Shown: positions 1 to 8,060 of the stretch, piece by piece
Layout: each line of letters opens with the position of its first letter
Position numbering within the stretch: position 1 is the first letter of the stretch
IMG/VR virus record: IMGVR_UViG_2711768034_000011
Strand: one strand, 5' to 3'
From: a virus
Lineage: Duplodnaviria > Heunggongvirae > Uroviricota > Caudoviricetes
Length of the DNA stretch: 8,060 nt
Position numbers and translations under genes: made by a program
The notes under the pieces: generated by a model
Database searches by the model: none
What the model saw: only the letters and a program-made list of their open reading frames with translations
Told to the model about the DNA's origin: nothing

Positions 1-1254
1 ATGCTGGAACAAATGGGCATTGCCGCGAAGCAAGCCTCGTATAAATTAGCGCAACTCTCCAGCCGCGAAAAAAATCGCGTGCTGGAAAAAATCGCCGATG
101 AACTGGAAGCACAAAGCGAAATCATCCTCAACGCTAACGCCCAGGATGTTGCTGACGCGCGAGCCAATGGCCTTAGCGAAGCGATGCTTGACCGTCTGGC
201 ACTGACGCCCGCACGGCTGAAAGGCATTGCCGACGATGTACGTCAGGTGTGCAACCTCGCCGATCCGGTGGGGCAGGTAATCGATGGCGGCGTACTGGAC
301 AGCGGCCTGCGTCTTGAGCGTCGTCGCGTACCGCTGGGGGTTATTGGCGTGATTTATGAAGCGCGCCCGAACGTGACGGTTGATGTCGCTTCGCTGTGCC
401 TGAAAACCGGTAATGCGGTGATCCTGCGCGGTGGCAAAGAAACGTGTCGCACTAACGCTGCAACGGTGGCGGTGATTCAGGACGCCCTGAAATCCTGCGG
501 CTTACCGGCGGGTGCCGTGCAGGCGATTGATAATCCTGACCGTGCGCTGGTCAGTGAAATGCTGCGTATGGATAAATACATCGACATGCTGATCCCGCGT
601 GGTGGCGCTGGTTTGCATAAACTGTGCCGTGAACAGTCGACAATCCCGGTGATCACAGGTGGTATAGGCGTATGCCATATTTACGTTGATGAAAGTGTAG
701 AGATCGCTGAAGCATTAAAAGTGATCGTCAACGCGAAAACTCAGCGTCCGAGCACATGTAATACGGTTGAAACGTTGCTGGTGAATAAAAACATCGCCGA
801 TAGCTTCCTGCCCGCATTAAGCAAACAAATGGCGGAAAGCGGCGTGACATTACACGCAGATGCAGCTGCACTGGCGCAGTTGCAGGCAGGCCCTGCGAAG
901 GTGGTTGCTGTTAAAGCCGAAGAGTATGACGATGAGTTTCTGTCATTAGATTTGAACGTCAAAATCGTCAGCGATCTTGACGATGCCATCGCCCATATTC
1001 GTGAACACGGCACACAACACTCCGATGCGATCCTGACCCGCGATATGCGCAACGCCCAGCGTTTTGTTAACGAAGTGGATTCGTCCGCTGTTTACGTTAA
1101 CGCCTCTACGCGTTTTACCGACGGCGGCCAGTTTGGTCTGGGTGCGGAAGTGGCGGTAAGCACACAAAAACTCCACGCGCGTGGCCCAATGGGGCTGGAA
1201 GCACTGACCACTTACAAGTGGATCGGCATTGGTGATTACACCATTCGTGCGTAA
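1..1254 (+). CDS. proA: Gamma-glutamyl phosphate reductase (glutamate-5-semialdehyde dehydrogenase), complete 417 aa
   Basis: 417-aa ORF starting at window position 1; I recognise the sequence as enterobacterial ProA; location immediately upstream of thrW matches the known proBA-thrW arrangement (established knowledge). Confidence 0.95.
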
Positions 1255-1368: not shown

Positions 1369-1444
1369 GCCGATATAGCTCAGTTGGTAGAGCAGCGCAT
1401 TCGTAATGCGAAGGTCGTAGGTTCGACTCCTATTATCGGCACCA
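1369..1444 (+). tRNA. thrW: tRNA-Thr (anticodon CGU), 76 nt with encoded CCA end
   Basis: Sequence GCCGATATAGCTCAGTTGGTAGAGCAGCGCATTCGTAATGCGAAGGTCGTAGGTTCGACTCCTATTATCGGCACCA; 7-bp acceptor stem GCCGATA/TATCGGC, D-loop and GTTCGACTCC T-arm motifs, anticodon CGT in the anticodon loop. A known phage integration target. Confidence 0.93.
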
Positions 1445-1458
1445 TTTAAATCAATAAG

Positions 1459-2622
1459 TTACACATCATTAGTACCTTCCTTATTTTTTGACTGGGACAA
1501 ATTTGGGACCGATGGGTTCAGGATCGAGTCTATTTGCCGTGCGTGTTCGGTAAGGTGATTAGGTGCGAGGTGAGCATATCGACGAACCATTTCGATAGAC
1601 TCCCAGCCTCCCATTTCCTGTAACACTGACAACGGGACACCGGCTTGAACCAGCCAACTTGCCCAGGTGTGTCTCAAGTCATGAAATCTGAAATCATCAA
1701 TACCAGCTCGTCTCAGCGCCGCTTTCCAGGCTGTGTTTGCGTCATACCGCATCTTCCTGACTGTTGGCGCTTTCGTTCCGTCTGGTTTGGTACAGCTTTC
1801 CTTGTACACAAATACCCAACGGTGATGATTCCCGATTTGTTTTTTCAATACGCGACATGCAGTATCATTCAGCGCAACGCCAATTGCGCGGTTTGATTTA
1901 CTCTCTTCCGGGTTTATCCATGCCACCCGGCGCTGCATGTCTATTTGTTGCCATTCAAGGTTGATGATGTTCGAGCGTCTTAAGCCTGTTGCCAGTGCAA
2001 ATTCAACAACAGACTTTAATGGCTCCGGACATTCATCAATCAGCCTTTGTGCTTCATGGGGCTCCAGCCAGCGGATCCGTTTATTCTTTGGTTGAGGCAC
2101 TTTAATAATTGGTGCCTTATCCAGCATTTTCCATTCACGCTCTGCGGCTCTTAGTAGGGCCTTTATAAATGAAAGATGCGTAGCCTTCGTTGCAACGGAC
2201 GCTGGTTTTGGCGTGTATTCTGGAACAGGTTTCCCTTTTTTTCTACATGCTTCTGCCCTGAGTTTCCAGTTTTCCTCATGACGCCGGTTCGTCATTTTCT
2301 GCATTGCTGAATAAATTTTTGATTCAGTAATGTCTCTTAGTTGCATTCCTGCGAAATGTTGAAGCCAGAATCCGATCCGGCTTTTGTCATCGTCCAGTGA
2401 TTTTTTATGTGCTTTCTCTTCGAGCCACCTGATACACGCCTCCTCGAACGTCATATCAGGTATTTCACCAAGTTTGCTGACCCGCCATGCTTCAGCCTTT
2501 AGCTTGTCATGGAGCTCTGTCGCCTGCCTTTTGTCCTTTGTTCCAAGAGACTGTTTAAATCTTTTACCGTTCGGCAATGTGAAACTGGCGTACCATATTT
2601 CACCTCTGCGGAAGAGTGACAT
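1459..2622 (-). CDS. int: Phage integrase, tyrosine recombinase, P22-type (387 aa)
   Basis: 387-aa ORF ending 14 nt from the tRNA 3' end; N-terminus [22 protein letters not shown] and C-terminal [13 protein letters not shown]...VRRYAHL catalytic boxes; SD-like AGAGGAAAG upstream of the ATG at 2622. P22 integrates at thrW (established knowledge). Confidence 0.93.
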
Positions 2623-2849
2623 TTTCTTTCCTCTGTTATGCCATCACCCGCGCTCACCTGGACAGTATGCAGCGGAGACTGAAGCGCCGCAATGCAGGCT
2701 TGTCGTGTTGTGAGGTAAGGAGATTTTAGTTTAGTGGGGTCTTTGCGTGTTGCCTGTAGGCGGCCTGTTCGTATCCAGTTGGTAGCGGTAGGTCTGGATA
2801 TCTTGAGAAACTGACAGGCCTCATCGAGTGTGAGGCTGTATGATTCCAT
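2499..2849 (-). CDS. xis: Excisionase / AlpA-like helix-turn-helix DNA-binding protein (116 aa from ATG at 2849; the listed ORF extends to a GTG at 2879)
   Basis: HTH-like segment [26 protein letters not shown]; AGAGGT SD 4 nt before the ATG at 2849; sits immediately upstream of int on the same strand. The 3' end overlaps the int 5' end by 124 nt in another frame; the 116-aa size matches my recollection of P22 Xis. Confidence 0.7.
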
Positions 2850-3099
2850 GGTTACCTCTGCTTTTTGAACGCATGTCACGTAACTTCTTAATGTGTTCTG
2901 CCGTTTCGATCTCTTCTGCTATCCGATCTGCATCAGCTTTATTCACAGGTTCAAAGTCATGATTAAAGCGGAACATGCTGGCGATACATGTTCCGCCTTT
3001 TCGGATGTAGTGAACTTTGTTGTGGGTAGAACGCAGGATTTTGCAGGGAGTGCCGTGGTGGTCGACGTACCAGGTGTTAGGAAAAATGATTCTGAACAT
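2821..3099 (-). CDS. Hypothetical phage protein, 92 aa, function unknown
   Basis: ORF with SD GAGGTG 5 nt upstream of the ATG at 3099; co-directional and tightly packed with neighbours (29-nt overlap with the xis start). I do not recognise the family. Confidence 0.6.
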   Translation of the reverse strand: MFRIIFPNTWYVDHHGTPCKILRSTHNKVHYIRKGGTCIASMFRFNHDFEPVNKADADRIAEEIETAEHIKKLRDMRSKSRGNHGIIQPHTR

Positions 3100-3371: not shown

Positions 3372-3467
3372 TTAATCCCTGAATTGTTGGTTAATACGCT
3401 TGAGGGTGAATGCGAATAATAAAAAAGGAGCCTGTAGCTCCCTGATGATTTTGCTTTTCATGTTCAT
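3372..3467 (-). CDS. Putative small ORF, 31 aa (MNMKSKIIRELQAPFLLFAFTLKRINQQFRD), not in the supplied ORF track
   Basis: First ATG overlaps the stop of the upstream 72-aa gene as ATGA; AAGGAG lies 8 nt before the in-frame second ATG; its TAA stop is 6 nt before the TraR-like ATG. It encloses a hairpin plus U-tract, so it may instead be a terminator or attenuator. Confidence 0.3.
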   Translation of the reverse strand: MNMKSKIIRELQAPFLLFAFTLKRINQQFRD

Positions 3468-3679
3468 CGCTCCTTAAAGACGCCGTTTAACATGCCGATC
3501 GCCAGGCTTAAATGAGTCGGTGTGAATCCCATCAGCGTTACCGTTTCGCGGTGCTTCTTCAGTACGCTACGGCAAATGTCATCGACGTTTTTATCCGGAA
3601 ACTGCTGTCTGGCTTTTTTGATTTCAGAATTAGCCTGACGGGCTATGCTGCGAAGGGCGTTTTCCTGCTGAGGTGTCAT
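3464..3679 (-). CDS. Hypothetical phage protein, 72 aa from ATG at 3679 (listed ORF extends to a TTG at 3778)
   Basis: ATG at 3679 overlaps the stop of the upstream 27-aa ORF (ATGA); its stop overlaps the start of the downstream small ORF (ATGA). Product MTPQQENALRSIARQANSEIKKARQQF... is not recognised. Confidence 0.55.
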   Translation of the reverse strand: MTPQQENALRSIARQANSEIKKARQQFPDKNVDDICRSVLKKHRETVTLMGFTPTHLSLAIGMLNGVFKER

Positions 3680-3759
3680 TGAACAAGTCCCATGTCGGCA
3701 AGCATAAGCACACAGAATATGAAGCCCGCTGCCAGAAAAATGCATTCCGTGGTTGTCAT
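3676..3759 (-). CDS. Putative small hydrophobic peptide, 27 aa (MTTTECIFLAAGFIFCVLMLADMGLVQ), not in the supplied ORF track
   Basis: Strong SD GGGAGG (3764-3769) 4 nt upstream of the ATG at 3759; ATG overlaps the methyltransferase stop (ATGA) and its TGA overlaps the next gene ATG (ATGA); hydrophobic core long enough for one membrane helix. Confidence 0.4.
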   Translation of the reverse strand: MTTTECIFLAAGFIFCVLMLADMGLVQ

Positions 3760-4313
3760 GCAGCCTCCCGACGGGCAAGAATCCTTGAGCCGAACGCCAT
3801 CAACTCTCCACGATCAACGGTCGTAAAGTGGCAGTGTGTACGGGGGTATGGGTGCCAGATAATGAGCATCGAGCCTTTATTATTTCCACTGACGGGTTTC
3901 TCAGTGAGTGGGTTAATAAATGCCAGTCGTCCTGCCGTGATGAATCTGACCTCACTGGCGGTTTGTATCGCTTCATGAAACCATCCGACAGATGTGTCAG
4001 CAGGCAATAACATTACACATCCCACACTACTGAATTTGTTTTCAGTGGCTGCCTTTTTCACAAAAGGGGAAATATTGCTGTATGGTGGATTCAACCAGAC
4101 ATAACCAGAGGCATATCCCATTGCTTCAGGCCATGAAGTGGTTAATGTGTTCTGCTCCTGTGAGATAAAAAGCCGACATAGTCGGTTTTTTTCGCTGGCT
4201 GCAGCATCAAGTTGAAAAACGAACTCTGCATTAAGCGCAGCAAAAATCTCTGGTGGTGTGCGCCAGCTGTCGCGATGTTCGGCAGGAGTATTGCTTCCGG
4301 TGAAATCAGTCAT
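3756..4313 (-). CDS. Phage-type DNA N6-adenine methyltransferase (185 aa)
   Basis: NPPY catalytic motif (WLNPPYSN) and N-terminal W-x-TPPEIF...LDAAAS pattern typical of the phage N-6-adenine methyltransferase family; no adjacent restriction endonuclease gene. Confidence 0.85.
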   Translation of the reverse strand: MTDFTGSNTPAEHRDSWRTPPEIFAALNAEFVFQLDAAASEKNRLCRLFISQEQNTLTTSWPEAMGYASGYVWLNPPYSNISPFVKKAATENKFSSVGCVMLLPADTSVGWFHEAIQTASEVRFITAGRLAFINPLTEKPVSGNNKGSMLIIWHPYPRTHCHFTTVDRGELMAFGSRILARREAA

Positions 4314-4369
4314 ACAGCCCCCCGTTTATTATTTATCTCCTCAGCCAGCCGCTGTGCTTTCAGTGGATT

Positions 4370-4403
4370 TCTGATAACAGAAAGGCCGGGAAATACCCAG
4401 CCT
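4370..4403 (-). terminator. Candidate intrinsic terminator between exo and the methyltransferase gene
   Basis: On the minus-strand transcript: AGGCUGGG-UAUUU-CCCGGCCU (8-bp stem including one G-U pair) followed by UUUCUGUUAUC, located 62 nt downstream of the exo stop. Confidence 0.4.
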
Positions 4404-4464
4404 CGCTTTGTAACGGAGTAGATGAAAGTGATCGCGCCTACCCGGATATTATCGCGAGGATGCT

Positions 4465-5145
4465 TCATCGCCATTGCTCCCCAAATACAAAACCAATTTC
4501 AGCCAGTGCCTCGTCCATTTTTTCGATGAACTCCGGCACCATCTCGTCAAAATTCGCCATGTACTTTTCATCCCGCTCAACCACGACATAATGCAGGCCT
4601 TCACGCTTCATGCGCGGGTCATAGTTGGCAAAGTACCAGGCATCTTTTCGCGTCACCCACATGCTGTACTGCACCTGGGCCATGTAAGCCGACTTTATGG
4701 CCTCGAAACCACCGAGCCGGAACTTCATGAAATCCCGGGAGGTAAACGGGCATTTCAGCTCAAGGCCATTGCCGTCACTGCATAAACCATCGGGAGAGCA
4801 GGCGGTACGCATACTTTCGTCGCGATAGATGATCGGGGATTCAATAACATTCACGCCGGAAGTGAACTCAAACAGGGTTCTGGCGTCGTTCTCGTACTGT
4901 TTTCCCCATGCCAGCGCCTTAGCATTAACTTCCGTAGCCACACCGGTGCAAACCTCAGCCAGCAGGGTGTGGAAGTAGGACATTTTCATGTCAGGCCACT
5001 TCTTTCCGGAGCGGGGTTTTGCTATCACGTTGTGAACTTCTGAAGCGGTGATGACGCCGAGCCGTAATTTGTGCCACGCATCATCCCCTTGTTCGACAGC
5101 TCTCACATCGATCCCGGTACGCTGCAGGATAATGTCCGGTGTCAT
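4465..5145 (-). CDS. exo: Lambda-type exonuclease (Red alpha), 226 aa
   Basis: Near-identical to the phage lambda Exo sequence as I recall it ([40 protein letters not shown]...); 4-nt ATGA overlap with bet as in lambda. Confidence 0.95.
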
Positions 5146-6653: not shown

Positions 6654-7022
6654 TCAGGCGGCTTTGATAGTCATATCATCTGAATCAAATATTCCTGATG
6701 TATCGATATCGGTAATTCTTATTCCTTCGCTACCATCCATTGTAGGCCATCCTTCCTGACCATTTCCATCATTCCAGTCGAACTCACACACAACACCATA
6801 TGCATTTAAGTCGCTTGAAATTGCTATAAGCAGAGCATGTTGCGCCAGCATGATTAATACAGCATTTAATACAGAGCCGTGTTTATTGAGTCGGTATTCA
6901 GAGTCTGACCAGAAATTATTAATCTTGTGAAGTTTTTCCTCTGTCATTAAGTCATGGTCGATTTCAATTTCTATTGATGCTTTCCAGTCGTAATCAATGA
7001 TGTATTTTTTGATGTTTGACAT
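6654..7022 (-). CDS. ea10: Lambda-type Ea10 (Ssb-like early protein), 122 aa
   Basis: MSNIKKYIIDYDWKASIEIEIDHD... matches lambda Ea10 as recalled. Confidence 0.9.
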   Translation of the reverse strand: MSNIKKYIIDYDWKASIEIEIDHDLMTEEKLHKINNFWSDSEYRLNKHGSVLNAVLIMLAQHALLIAISSDLNAYGVVCEFDWNDGNGQEGWPTMDGSEGIRITDIDTSGIFDSDDMTIKAA

Positions 7023-7129
7023 CTGTTCATATCCTCACAGAAAAAAATCGCCCTCACATTAGAGGTCAAAGAAGATTTCCAATAATCAGAACAAGTCGGC
7101 TCCTGTTTAGTTACGAGCGACATTGCTCC

Positions 7130-7157
7130 GTGTATTCACTCGTTGGAATGAATACAC
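7130..7157. repeat. Perfect 9-bp inverted repeat GTGTATTCA / TGAATACAC with a 10-nt spacer
   Basis: Read directly from the sequence, in the intergenic region between the AT-rich ORF and ea10. Confidence 0.6.
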
Positions 7158-7181
7158 AGTGCAGTGTTTATTCTTTTGTTT

Positions 7182-7211
7182 GCGTGAAAATGAAACCCGC
7201 CTGAGCGGGTT
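7182..7211 (-). terminator. Candidate intrinsic terminator overlapping the stop of the AT-rich ORF
   Basis: Stem AACCCGC / GCGGGTT (7 bp, loop CTGA) at 7194-7211; on the minus transcript followed by UCAUUUUCACGC; on the plus strand followed by a T5 run 8 nt away, so possibly bidirectional. Confidence 0.35.
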
Positions 7212-7763
7212 ATGACCACTTTTTGTTTGGATTTCGTTGGTGAGCGTGGTTTACAGGATTATTTGATATACCCCATAACTCTGACTCGCTTATCTCTACA
7301 CGAGAGAAAGACCTGCTTTCTTTCAGTTCTTTTATAAACCTAGAACCTACGATGACATCTATTGTCCCAGAAAGTTCTTGTAAAAGATCTTTGTTTTTTC
7401 TGAGGAAGAAAACATCTTCTTTATATTTAATTTTTACATAGAATTTATTCTGTATTTTTAATATATCAAAGCATGGCAGATATCTATATCCCTCATGCTT
7501 TCGCCACTGCTTAACAATTATAACATCTCTTTCATTTACTGCATTAATCAGCCCAAGACCAAGTATAGGTATGAATATTCTATTGTCTGCCGAAAGCGTA
7601 CAATTATCACCACCAGGCAAATATGTATAAATCATGTCGGAATTTTTATACGCATCAACGAATGCACGTAAGAATCGTACATATTTTTGCCATCCGTTTA
7701 TACCAAATTTACCATATAAGTATTCTTTATTTGTTAGAAGAAAACTATTTGTATCAGGAGCCT
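7210..7763 (-). pseudogene. AT-rich orphan ORF of unknown function, probably 5'-truncated by IS1 (at least 183 codons of open frame; first ATG at 7635 gives 141 aa)
   Basis: Markedly lower GC than the flanking lambda-like genes; the frame stays open for 42 sense codons upstream of the ATG at 7635 right up to the IS1 junction, with no in-frame ATG/GTG/TTG and no SD before 7635. Confidence 0.5.
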
Positions 7764-8060
7764 GGTAATGACTCCAACTTATTGATAGTGTTTTATGTTC
7801 AGATAATGCCCGATGACTTTGTCATGCAGCTCCACCGATTTTGAGAACGACAGCGACTTCCGTCCCAGCCGTGCCAGGTGCTGCCTCAGATTCAGGTTAT
7901 GCCGCTCAATTCGCTGCGTATATCGCTTGCTGATTACGTGCAGCTTTCCCTTCAGGCGGGATTCATACAGCGGCCAGCCATCCGTCATCCATATCACCAC
8001 GTCAAAGGGTGACAGCAGGCTCATAAGACGCCCCAGCGTCGCCATAGTGCGCTCACCGAA
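7764..8060 (-). mobile_element. IS1, partial (right inverted-repeat end, 297 of about 768 bp; continues beyond the window)
   Basis: Begins with the IS1 terminal inverted repeat GGTAATGACTCCAACTTATTGAT at 7764 and contains the insB 3' coding region on the minus strand. Confidence 0.95.
7779..8060 (-). CDS. insB: IS1 transposase InsB, 3' portion (5' end lies beyond the window)
   Basis: Translation ...[93 protein letters not shown] matches IS1 InsB as recalled. Confidence 0.9.

Follow-up and report, generated by a model that had tools for sequence, protein, structure and literature searches.

The window analysed here, 8,060 nt of DNA from a caudoviricete record of IMG/VR (IMGVR_UViG_2711768034_000011), consists of proA, a tRNA-Thr gene and then the early-left (pL operon) arm of a lambdoid prophage that has tRNA-Thr, next to proA, as its integration site (Table 1). 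All prophage genes lie on the minus strand, and their order corresponds to transcription in the direction from gam to int. An identical stretch, annotated with the same gene order, is found in E. coli chromosomes. The subject of this analysis is a small ORF, hereafter the target, that is embedded in a string of closely spaced genes between a DNA methyltransferase gene and a gene for a TraR-like protein.

Table 1. Genes and sequence features of the 8,060-nt window, in order of position.
Feature	Position	Strand	Remarks
proA	1-1254		One end of the window
tRNA-Thr(CGT)	1369-1444		Between proA and the integrase gene
Integrase	1459-2622	minus	
Excisionase-like HTH protein	2499-2849	minus	
DUF4222 protein	2821-3099	minus	PF13973, E=2.6e-18
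TraR/DksA-type C4 zinc-finger protein, 72 aa	3147..3365	minus	PF01258, E=1.2e-8; PHROG 54
31-aa ORF	3372..3467	minus	Overlaps the target ORF
Terminator-like GC hairpin, then U-run (UUUUUUAUUAUU)	3415..3443	minus	Inside the 31-aa ORF
Target ORF, Orf61 family, 71 aa + stop	3464..3679	minus	PHROG 303, E=4.7e-36
A6 run, codons K21-K22 of the target	3614..3619	minus	A7 in reference lambda
27-aa hydrophobic ORF (MTTTECIFLAAGFIFCVLMLADMGLVQ)	3676..3759	minus	ATGA overlap at each end
Dam-family N6-adenine DNA methyltransferase (PF05869), 185 aa	3756..4313	minus	Pfam E=2.3e-56
DUF1317 protein, lambda orf60a homologue	4310..4474	minus	PF07026, E=7.4e-33
exo, bet, gam, kil/cIII, DUF2528, orphan ORF	beyond DUF1317	minus	
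IS1 transposase fragment			Last in the gene order of the window, after the orphan ORF

The target is contained in a longer open frame (3464..3778, minus strand) and is read from an internal ATG at 3679 to a stop codon at 3464-3466. A first-pass annotation of this DNA had described it as a 72-aa protein; the translation comprises 71 residues and a stop (72 codons), and the peptide quoted there was otherwise exact. The same annotation had proposed translational coupling to small ORFs on both sides, which is borne out by an ATGA shared with the 27-aa ORF at 3676-3679 and another shared with the 31-aa ORF at 3464-3467, and it had placed the target downstream of a methyltransferase and upstream of a TraR-like gene, in agreement with the coordinates and the Pfam matches. 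The methyltransferase gene and the 27-aa ORF also share an ATGA, and 6 nt separate the stop of the 31-aa ORF from the start of the TraR-like ORF. The methyltransferase scored above the cutoff of TIGR01712 and was matched by the orphan methyltransferase model of PADLOC, while PADLOC run on the target itself gave zero matches. That the target carries no recognisable motif, as also noted in the first pass, holds true for Pfam and NCBIfam, which returned zero matches above threshold.

The match of the target to PHROG 303 extends over its full length (residues 1-71). Using the target as query, tblastn identified 202 phage records at E <= 1e-5, and a profile search collected 355 proteins, mainly from Enterobacter, Klebsiella, Citrobacter and Leclercia. 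When 1.84 billion representative proteins were searched exhaustively with HMMER, only ~60 matched, of which ~25 were genuine distant homologues with lengths of 69-78 aa; these ~25 proteins of ~70 aa align with the target over its whole length. Two long multi-repeat matches (P0079 and P0090) look like spurious repeat-protein matches and were discarded. Of the 5,426 complete E. coli genomes, 3,136 carry a 389-nt block comprising the 31-aa ORF, the target and the 27-aa ORF, some of them in as many as five copies. Among sampled variants of the E. coli clade, 14 of 16 distinct substitutions in the target were synonymous, in a sample that was picked by protein identity and is biased to synonymous changes. 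Judged by these sequence comparisons, the target is a genuine and widely distributed ORF that is clearly under selection, and a chance ORF is excluded.

The target protein is 100% identical over 71 aa to Orf61 of 933W, VT2-Sakai and other Stx phages. At the DNA level, the window is ~97-98% identical to phage lambda over a segment that opens where the 27-aa ORF starts, which is exactly the junction with lambda-like DNA, and closes where orf73 starts. The single-base difference that stands out within this segment is a run of six A residues in the window where lambda has seven, and the tblastn match of the target in reference lambda is split in two pieces by a 1-nt indel. The annotated lambda orf61 (NP_040613; 61 aa, 30839-31024) is composed of a 32-aa out-of-register N-terminal extension, the first 24 aa of the target protein and five out-of-frame residues. 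Lambda orf61 is frameshifted and truncated because A7 replaces A6; an apparent truncation of lambda Orf61 was also pointed out in a review (Donaldson, 2021; PMC8614690). Together, these data indicate that the target is almost certainly the unbroken allele of phage lambda orf61, identical to Stx-phage Orf61. The gene is the same as that known as NP_040613 in lambda, vb_24B_7c in Phi24B and L0070 in 933W (PHROG 303); it belongs to the same pL early operon and has the same place in the exo-xis segment, between the orf60a/orf63 side and orf73, the TraR-like gene. In lambda, 933W and Phi24B, orf63 (DUF1382) is directly upstream of orf61, whereas in the window a Dam-family methyltransferase gene is found instead. 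The missing orf63 is a feature of the neighbourhood in the window, not of the protein. Downstream of the TraR-like gene the window has a DUF4222 gene, while lambda has ea22 at that place.

As lambda/Stx-phage orf61, the target is already known as a gene, very common in E. coli and with published deletion phenotypes. Dydecka et al. made orf61 deletions in both lambda and Phi24B (vb_24B_7c); the Phi24B deletion resulted in more survivors and lysogens, delayed induction and poorer adsorption, and the lambda deletion had small effects (PMC6213356). In the same study the Orf61 protein was insoluble and its mechanism was not found (PMC6213356). The Phi24B deletion phenotypes indicate that Orf61 nudges the phage towards lytic growth. 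The first-pass annotation had described the target as a protein of unknown function, a label that by its own account clear homology to a characterised protein would overturn, and the label falls because such a homologue exists: a genetic study (PMC6213356) and a structural model (PMC8614690) of Orf61 have been published. Identification as orf61 takes the target off the list of unknowns. The exo-xis region, which has an influence on Shiga-toxin prophage induction, is one of the few stretches of phage lambda still to be explained. New leads at this locus are the companionship of the gene with methyltransferases, the revision of its start to the 71-aa form, the 27-aa ORF that overlaps its annotated extension and, ahead of the TraR-like gene, a putative leader ORF with a terminator-like hairpin.

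The published Stx-phage Orf61 is annotated as 93 aa, with an N-terminal extension that the comparative data do not support. In an alignment of 25 homologues, all distant homologues begin at the Met that is residue 1 of the 71-aa form, so that the 93-aa annotation is probably too long; the extension is absent from every distant homologue in the alignment, and both NCBI PGAP and the phage 21 record annotate the 71-aa form. The 27-aa ORF overlaps, in another frame, the annotated N-extension of lambda and Stx-phage orf61, and has a Shine-Dalgarno sequence (GGGAGG) 4 nt upstream of its start. Starts and frames were compared in 25 distinct DNA variants of the E. coli clade. Read in the frame of the 27-aa ORF, the substitutions were 6 synonymous and 3 non-synonymous; the same changes read in the frame of the Orf61 extension were 1 synonymous and 8 non-synonymous, including a stop codon in phage 21. 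Third codon positions accounted for 5 of 8 variable sites in the 27-aa ORF, a proportion with a chance probability of ~0.09 at these small numbers. The 27-aa ORF was present in 84 of 84 E. coli-clade loci, whether orf63 or Dam was upstream, and was found in E. coli lambda/Stx-clade phages only. The comparative data argue that Orf61 very probably starts at the Met of the 71-aa form, and the substitution pattern makes it more likely that the 84 nt preceding the 71-aa ORF encode a hydrophobic 27-aa peptide than an Orf61 extension. The 5′ half of the annotated lambda orf61 may therefore be the coding sequence of a 27-aa membrane peptide read in a different frame, and ribosome density credited to that half may belong to the 27-aa ORF. 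We infer that the published orf61 deletions probably removed the overlapping 27-aa ORF too; if the peptide is real, they took out two genes. The earlier insolubility of Orf61 was possibly due to a mis-started construct, and the corrected 71-aa form is the protein to express.

AlphaFold2, run with a 51-sequence alignment, gave a model of the target with a pLDDT of 92.1 and a pTM of 0.77, with helices at residues 3-26, 32-49 and 54-64. The Orf61 product is accordingly predicted to be a 71-aa basic protein that forms a compact three-helix bundle. A Foldseek search of the PDB with a weaker single-sequence model gave zero significant matches, the best being a homeodomain (E=3, TM 0.34). A structure search of BFVD returned uncharacterised phage proteins only, including proteins of Xanthomonas and Aeromonas phages, and a profile search against PDB sequences was empty. 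These sequence and structure searches revealed no similarity of Orf61 to any protein of known mechanism. Profile and structure-prediction searches, which the first-pass annotation had recommended, have in this way yielded homology to PHROG 303 and a confident three-helix model without a significant structural match. In the review by Donaldson, residues 24-93 of Phi24B Orf61 were modelled as a three-helix, homeodomain-like fold (PMC8614690). The fold proposed there and the Orf61 model obtained here share a three-helix architecture of similar size; the homeodomain label itself may apply but draws no support from the searches reported here.

The main new result, and the lead to function, is the companionship of the Orf61 family with DNA methyltransferases. 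Loci were gathered by similarity to four query proteins, and the gene directly upstream of each Orf61-like gene was classed by Pfam matches of representatives of each upstream-gene cluster. Among the 310 loci obtained, which are not phylogenetically independent, the direct upstream gene encoded an MT-A70 enzyme in 105 (plus two fragments), a Dam enzyme in 54, a C5+Dam fusion in 20, a C5 enzyme in 14, an N6_N4 enzyme in 6, a PAPS_reduct+Dam protein in 5 and a D12 enzyme in 3 (one of them fused to C5); orf63/DUF1382 was in this position in 71 loci (plus two fused), exclusively in the E. coli clade. Another nine loci have one gene between the methyltransferase and the Orf61-like gene; in five of the nine it is an HNH-AP2 endonuclease-like gene. 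The upstream stop overlaps the Orf61-like start by 4 nt in 162 of the 310 loci. The first-pass annotation had looked to conserved linkage in related prophages, and outside the E. coli clade this is what was found, with a methyltransferase no more than two genes upstream in ~208 of 226 loci (~92%); the linkage is absent in lambda and Stx phages.

The arrangement takes many forms. In Klebsiella phage ST101-KPC2phi6.1, the Orf61 homologue is directly behind a C5 methyltransferase gene and overlaps it; in Enterobacter phage CobraSix, it follows and overlaps a gene for a 637-aa C5+Dam fusion; in a Yersinia phage, it follows a D12-class methyltransferase after a gap of 95 nt; and on other encoding contigs, homologues are found behind Dam, C5+Dam and PAPS_reduct+Dam enzymes. 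Pairs of MT-A70 and Orf61-like genes are found in the rightward replication/nin operon as well; there they lie between RusA/Q and the replication genes, among quite different neighbours and without a TraR-like gene. The companion methyltransferases thus represent at least five Pfam families in two different operons, and a single Orf61-like cluster (single-linked, >=95% identity) is paired with eight methyltransferase architectures. Seen from the side of the methyltransferase, an Orf61-like gene lies downstream of 70 of 80 close MT-A70 relatives, directly adjacent in ~59. Of the 10 without an Orf61-like companion, at least eight have MT-A70 right in front of the gene that would otherwise come after the Orf61-like gene. 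A scan of genome contigs with the Dam protein identified two loci, both in other genera and neither with an Orf61-like gene.

The companionship is not uniform across the family. In the E. coli clade, orf63/DUF1382 is upstream in 73 of 84 sampled loci, and the Dam arrangement is present in only 244 of the 5,426 complete E. coli genomes. Homologues in the P0131 clade and in Vibrio phage have no methyltransferase nearby, and those of the P0110 clade adjoin HTH_ParB and Nmad5 genes, Nmad5 being a DNA-modification-associated domain. Two loci have a Lar_restr_allev gene as the next gene after the Orf61-like one. The only candidate for a methyltransferase-Orf61 fusion of the Rosetta-stone type, P0138, looks like a frameshift artefact. 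No mention of the methyltransferase-Orf61 linkage was found in the searchable literature.

The explanation towards which we lean is that the target is an intact orf61, an early-left accessory gene that would serve as a translationally coupled companion of orphan phage DNA methyltransferases. A real functional link of the Orf61 family to DNA methylation in itself appears fairly probable from the comparative data, since the slot holds almost only methyltransferases, the overlap is the rule and the pair recurs elsewhere. The Orf61-like protein would then be a conserved, co-translated downstream companion of many unrelated methyltransferase families, a small non-catalytic binding protein in the DNA-modification/anti-restriction arm of the early programme, and might either modulate methylation in general or handle the consequences of methylation (modification-dependent nucleases, SOS signalling). 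Because the same Orf61-like protein pairs with different methyltransferases, it presumably does not recognise one particular enzyme, and because 10 of 80 MT-A70 genes and the two Dam homologues lack the companion, the Orf61-like gene is dispensable for the enzyme; a companion that is both unmatched to the enzyme family and dispensable is unlikely to be a specific catalytic subunit. A general, enzyme-independent companion that boosts or gates methylation, blocks modification-dependent (type IV) nucleases of the Mrr/McrBC kind or damps the SOS signal they cause is a tentative candidate and on present evidence an unlikely one, and any specific mechanism for Orf61 is at best doubtful. The lambda/Stx clade would have lost the adjacent methyltransferase and gained the hydrophobic 27-aa ORF before orf61. 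The comparative data point to a class of partners, namely phage DNA methyltransferases and modification-dependent restriction. If true, the companion role would give lambda orf61 a molecular function within a new class of anti-restriction/methylation-accessory factors, and a methylation-linked role would connect with toxin-phage biology.

Alternatively, Orf61 could be a conserved lysis-lysogeny regulator that merely flanks a recombination-prone methyltransferase slot, with a function unrelated to methylation. A small homeodomain-like DNA-binding protein, as proposed by Donaldson (2021), would be an example of such a regulator. The exo-xis slot has a conserved gene on either side, DUF1317 (orf60a) upstream and Orf61 downstream, and because of the conserved upstream flank, part of the linkage possibly reflects conserved gene order. 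Lambda and Stx phages have orf63 in the slot, and deletion of orf61 still produces phenotypes there without an adjacent methyltransferase, which runs counter to a methylation link. Near-identical Orf61-like proteins behind many methyltransferases are what module swapping would give, and the protein is basic, with a three-helix homeodomain-like model published (PMC8614690). However, the slot is filled almost only by methyltransferases of at least five families, not by assorted accessory genes; the pairing recurs in a different operon with other flanking genes; and overlap of stop and start is the rule (162 loci). We consider a function unrelated to methylation rather unlikely. In the window, the upstream flank of the methyltransferase slot is the DUF1317 gene.

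For an Orf61 that accompanies DNA methyltransferases, two known kinds of small protein offer comparisons. The restriction-alleviation and anti-restriction proteins of the lambda Ral and Rac Lar type (PF14354) are, like Orf61, small proteins of lambdoid early operons, and they act at the interface of restriction and modification; the likeness is hypothetical and functional only, with no similarity in sequence or fold, and membership is not claimed. The C proteins of restriction-modification systems are, like Orf61, small, helical and encoded beside methyltransferase or endonuclease genes. However, C proteins are of the HTH_3/Xre type and are usually encoded upstream of the gene they control, whereas Orf61 is always downstream of the methyltransferase, and no HTH family of Pfam matched the target or the 25 homologues even at E values up to 1.

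The first-pass annotation had read the whole string, from the methyltransferase through the 27-aa, 71-aa and 31-aa ORFs to the TraR-like gene, as one functional unit. The part of this reading that joins the methyltransferase to the Orf61-like gene is upheld in distant relatives, while the TraR-like gene and the 27-aa and 31-aa ORFs proved separable. One obligate multi-component unit would fit with junctions that all overlap or nearly abut, with a TraR-like gene that almost all exo-xis contexts have within 3 kb on the downstream side, and with the joint occurrence of a Dam, an Orf61-like and a TraR-like gene across five distinct phage backbones. However, the 27-aa ORF is missing outside the E. 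coli clade, the 31-aa ORF tracks the TraR-like gene even where this is one to four genes away from the Orf61-like gene, a TraR-like gene is missing from 74 MT-A70 loci whose downstream flank spans 2 kb or more, lambda and Stx phages have no methyltransferase, and lambda Orf73 acts alone on RNA polymerase in vitro (PMC9239242). The comparative data largely refute an obligate unit, which is very unlikely, and the link between the TraR-like gene and Orf61 is positional and confined to the exo-xis region.

The least probable identity is the one under which many RefSeq/GenBank records list the protein, 'cell division protein ZapA': beyond the name in NCBI records, a ZapA-like cell-division role draws on a weak match to Pfam ZapA (PF05164; E=0.014, 16.1 bits, residues 3-35) that falls under the gathering threshold of 23.8 bits, covers 33 of 88 profile positions (16-48) and is seen in only 3 of 25 members of the Orf61 family, and as NCBIfam gives zero matches and no ZapA-like fold was found, we reject it as extremely improbable.

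The TraR-like protein of the window is a homologue of lambda Orf73. It starts with MADIIDSA, corresponding to the motif D3-x-x-D6-x-A8, has four Cys residues arranged as CxxC...CxxC, and scores 54.6 bits against TIGR02419, just below the cutoff of 59.7. Lambda Orf73 binds RNA polymerase, reprograms transcription and inhibits rRNA promoters (PMC9239242). Upstream of the TraR-like gene, the 31-aa ORF has a second ATG at 3461 that gives 29 aa and is preceded by AAGGAG 8 nt upstream; phage 21 and lambda records annotate a 29-aa form, and the ORF probably starts at this second ATG. According to what a review relates of lambda ribosome profiling, extra peptides of 7 and 31 aa are made in the region, the 31-aa peptide being 'orf2313' (PMC8614690). 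The C-terminal half of the 31-aa ORF peptide is conserved, with synonymous changes. In 49 of 72 Enterobacter-type loci, a 30-aa homologue (MKALITRSLSRPFLLLAFTFNRINRQFREH) immediately precedes a TraR-like gene and is parted from the Orf61-like gene by one to four genes. Because the homologues stay beside TraR-like genes, the 31-aa ORF belongs with the TraR-like gene and not with Orf61.

The hairpin inside the 31-aa ORF has its stem at 3443-3425, with a folding z of -2.7. Its arms vary in sequence (GGAGC...GCUCC, GGUCG...CGGCC and GGGAGCU...AGCUCCC), and the pairing registers of the two arm types are offset by one column. Folded one by one, 10 of 10 sequence variants from two phage clades kept a hairpin right in front of the U-run, and by its sequence it looks like an intrinsic terminator. 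It is probably not the lambda terminator tL3, which lies nearer exo. The 31-aa ORF may be a leader of the TraR-like gene whose translation controls read-through.

Among loci whose Orf61-like genes (relatives of the window's 71-aa protein, the intact form of lambda orf61) are nearly identical, the slot immediately 5′ of these genes is hypervariable (comparison loci L010-L014 and L231-L310, in each of which the slot gene ends at about position 3004). Its occupants belong to single methyltransferase families (Dam, MT-A70, C5, N6_N4, or D12) or are fusions (C5+Dam, C5+D12, and PAPS_reduct+Dam). Such variability beside near-identical neighbors suggests that methylation specificity is swapped rapidly in Enterobacter and Klebsiella prophages. 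In five loci, a homing-endonuclease-like gene encoding HNH_3 and AP2 domains has inserted precisely at the junction of the methyltransferase and Orf61-like genes. In the P0110 clade of Orf61-like proteins, an HTH_ParB gene lies downstream and overlaps the Orf61-like gene, followed by an Nmad5 gene. Nmad5 is a nucleotide-modification-associated domain; this is another DNA-modification neighborhood, lacking a classical methyltransferase.

Coordinates of features in the window and in comparison loci (NC_001416, reference lambda)
Feature	Window	Strand	Other loci	Remark
tRNA-Thr(CGT)	1369-1444			just downstream of proA
Prophage integrase	1459-2622			abuts tRNA-Thr(CGT)
31-aa ORF (30-aa counterpart)	3372-3467	-	L394:1474-1596; L267:3718-3810; L272:3554-3646	hairpin at 3415-3443 (-)
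A-run in orf61	3614-3619	-	L001 around 2570; within orf61, NC_001416 30839-31024	
27-aa hydrophobic ORF	3676-3759	-	L001:2421-2504	
DUF2528 protein	6654-7022			beyond kil/cIII
141-aa ORF	7210-7635			beyond kil/cIII
IS1 transposase fragment	7779-8045			beyond kil/cIII
HTH_ParB/Nmad5 neighborhood			L025:3725-5245; L026:3725-5503	P0110 clade
HNH_3 + AP2 insertion			L260, L277, L283, L288, L296	about 490-600 nt upstream of Orf61-like start

By its sequence, orf61 of reference lambda is a frameshifted allele: an A-run of six in the window prophage, Stx phages, and several lambda-like isolates is A7 at the same site in reference lambda. A frameshift already present there would explain the little effect of orf61 deletions in lambda. 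The 5′ half of orf61 as annotated in lambda and Stx phages is overlapped, in another frame, by a hydrophobic 27-aa ORF that only the E. coli clade carries and that none of the records inspected annotates. Substitutions comprise six synonymous and three non-synonymous changes in the 27-aa frame, and one and eight, respectively, including a stop, in the overlapping orf61 frame, a pattern that favors the 27-aa ORF. Many E. coli and Stx-phage RefSeq/GenBank records name Orf61 “cell division protein ZapA”; we rejected this name, as the Pfam ZapA match fell below threshold.

The coding sequence of the 31-aa ORF contains a terminator-like hairpin with a U-run. Enterobacter-type phages have a conserved 30-aa counterpart immediately 5′ of their TraR/Orf73-like genes, and the hairpin is kept in every variant examined despite differing arm sequences. 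The 31-aa ORF could be a leader ORF whose translation controls read-through into the gene for the RNA-polymerase-binding factor.

Beyond kil/cIII, the 141-aa ORF had no match in Pfam or PADLOC. In L002, a comparison genome otherwise identical to the window, the genes annotated near the position corresponding to window 6654-8045 include one with a Panacea domain and one labeled hypothetical. At the other end, the prophage is probably attached at the tRNA-Thr(CGT) gene, since its integrase abuts that gene.
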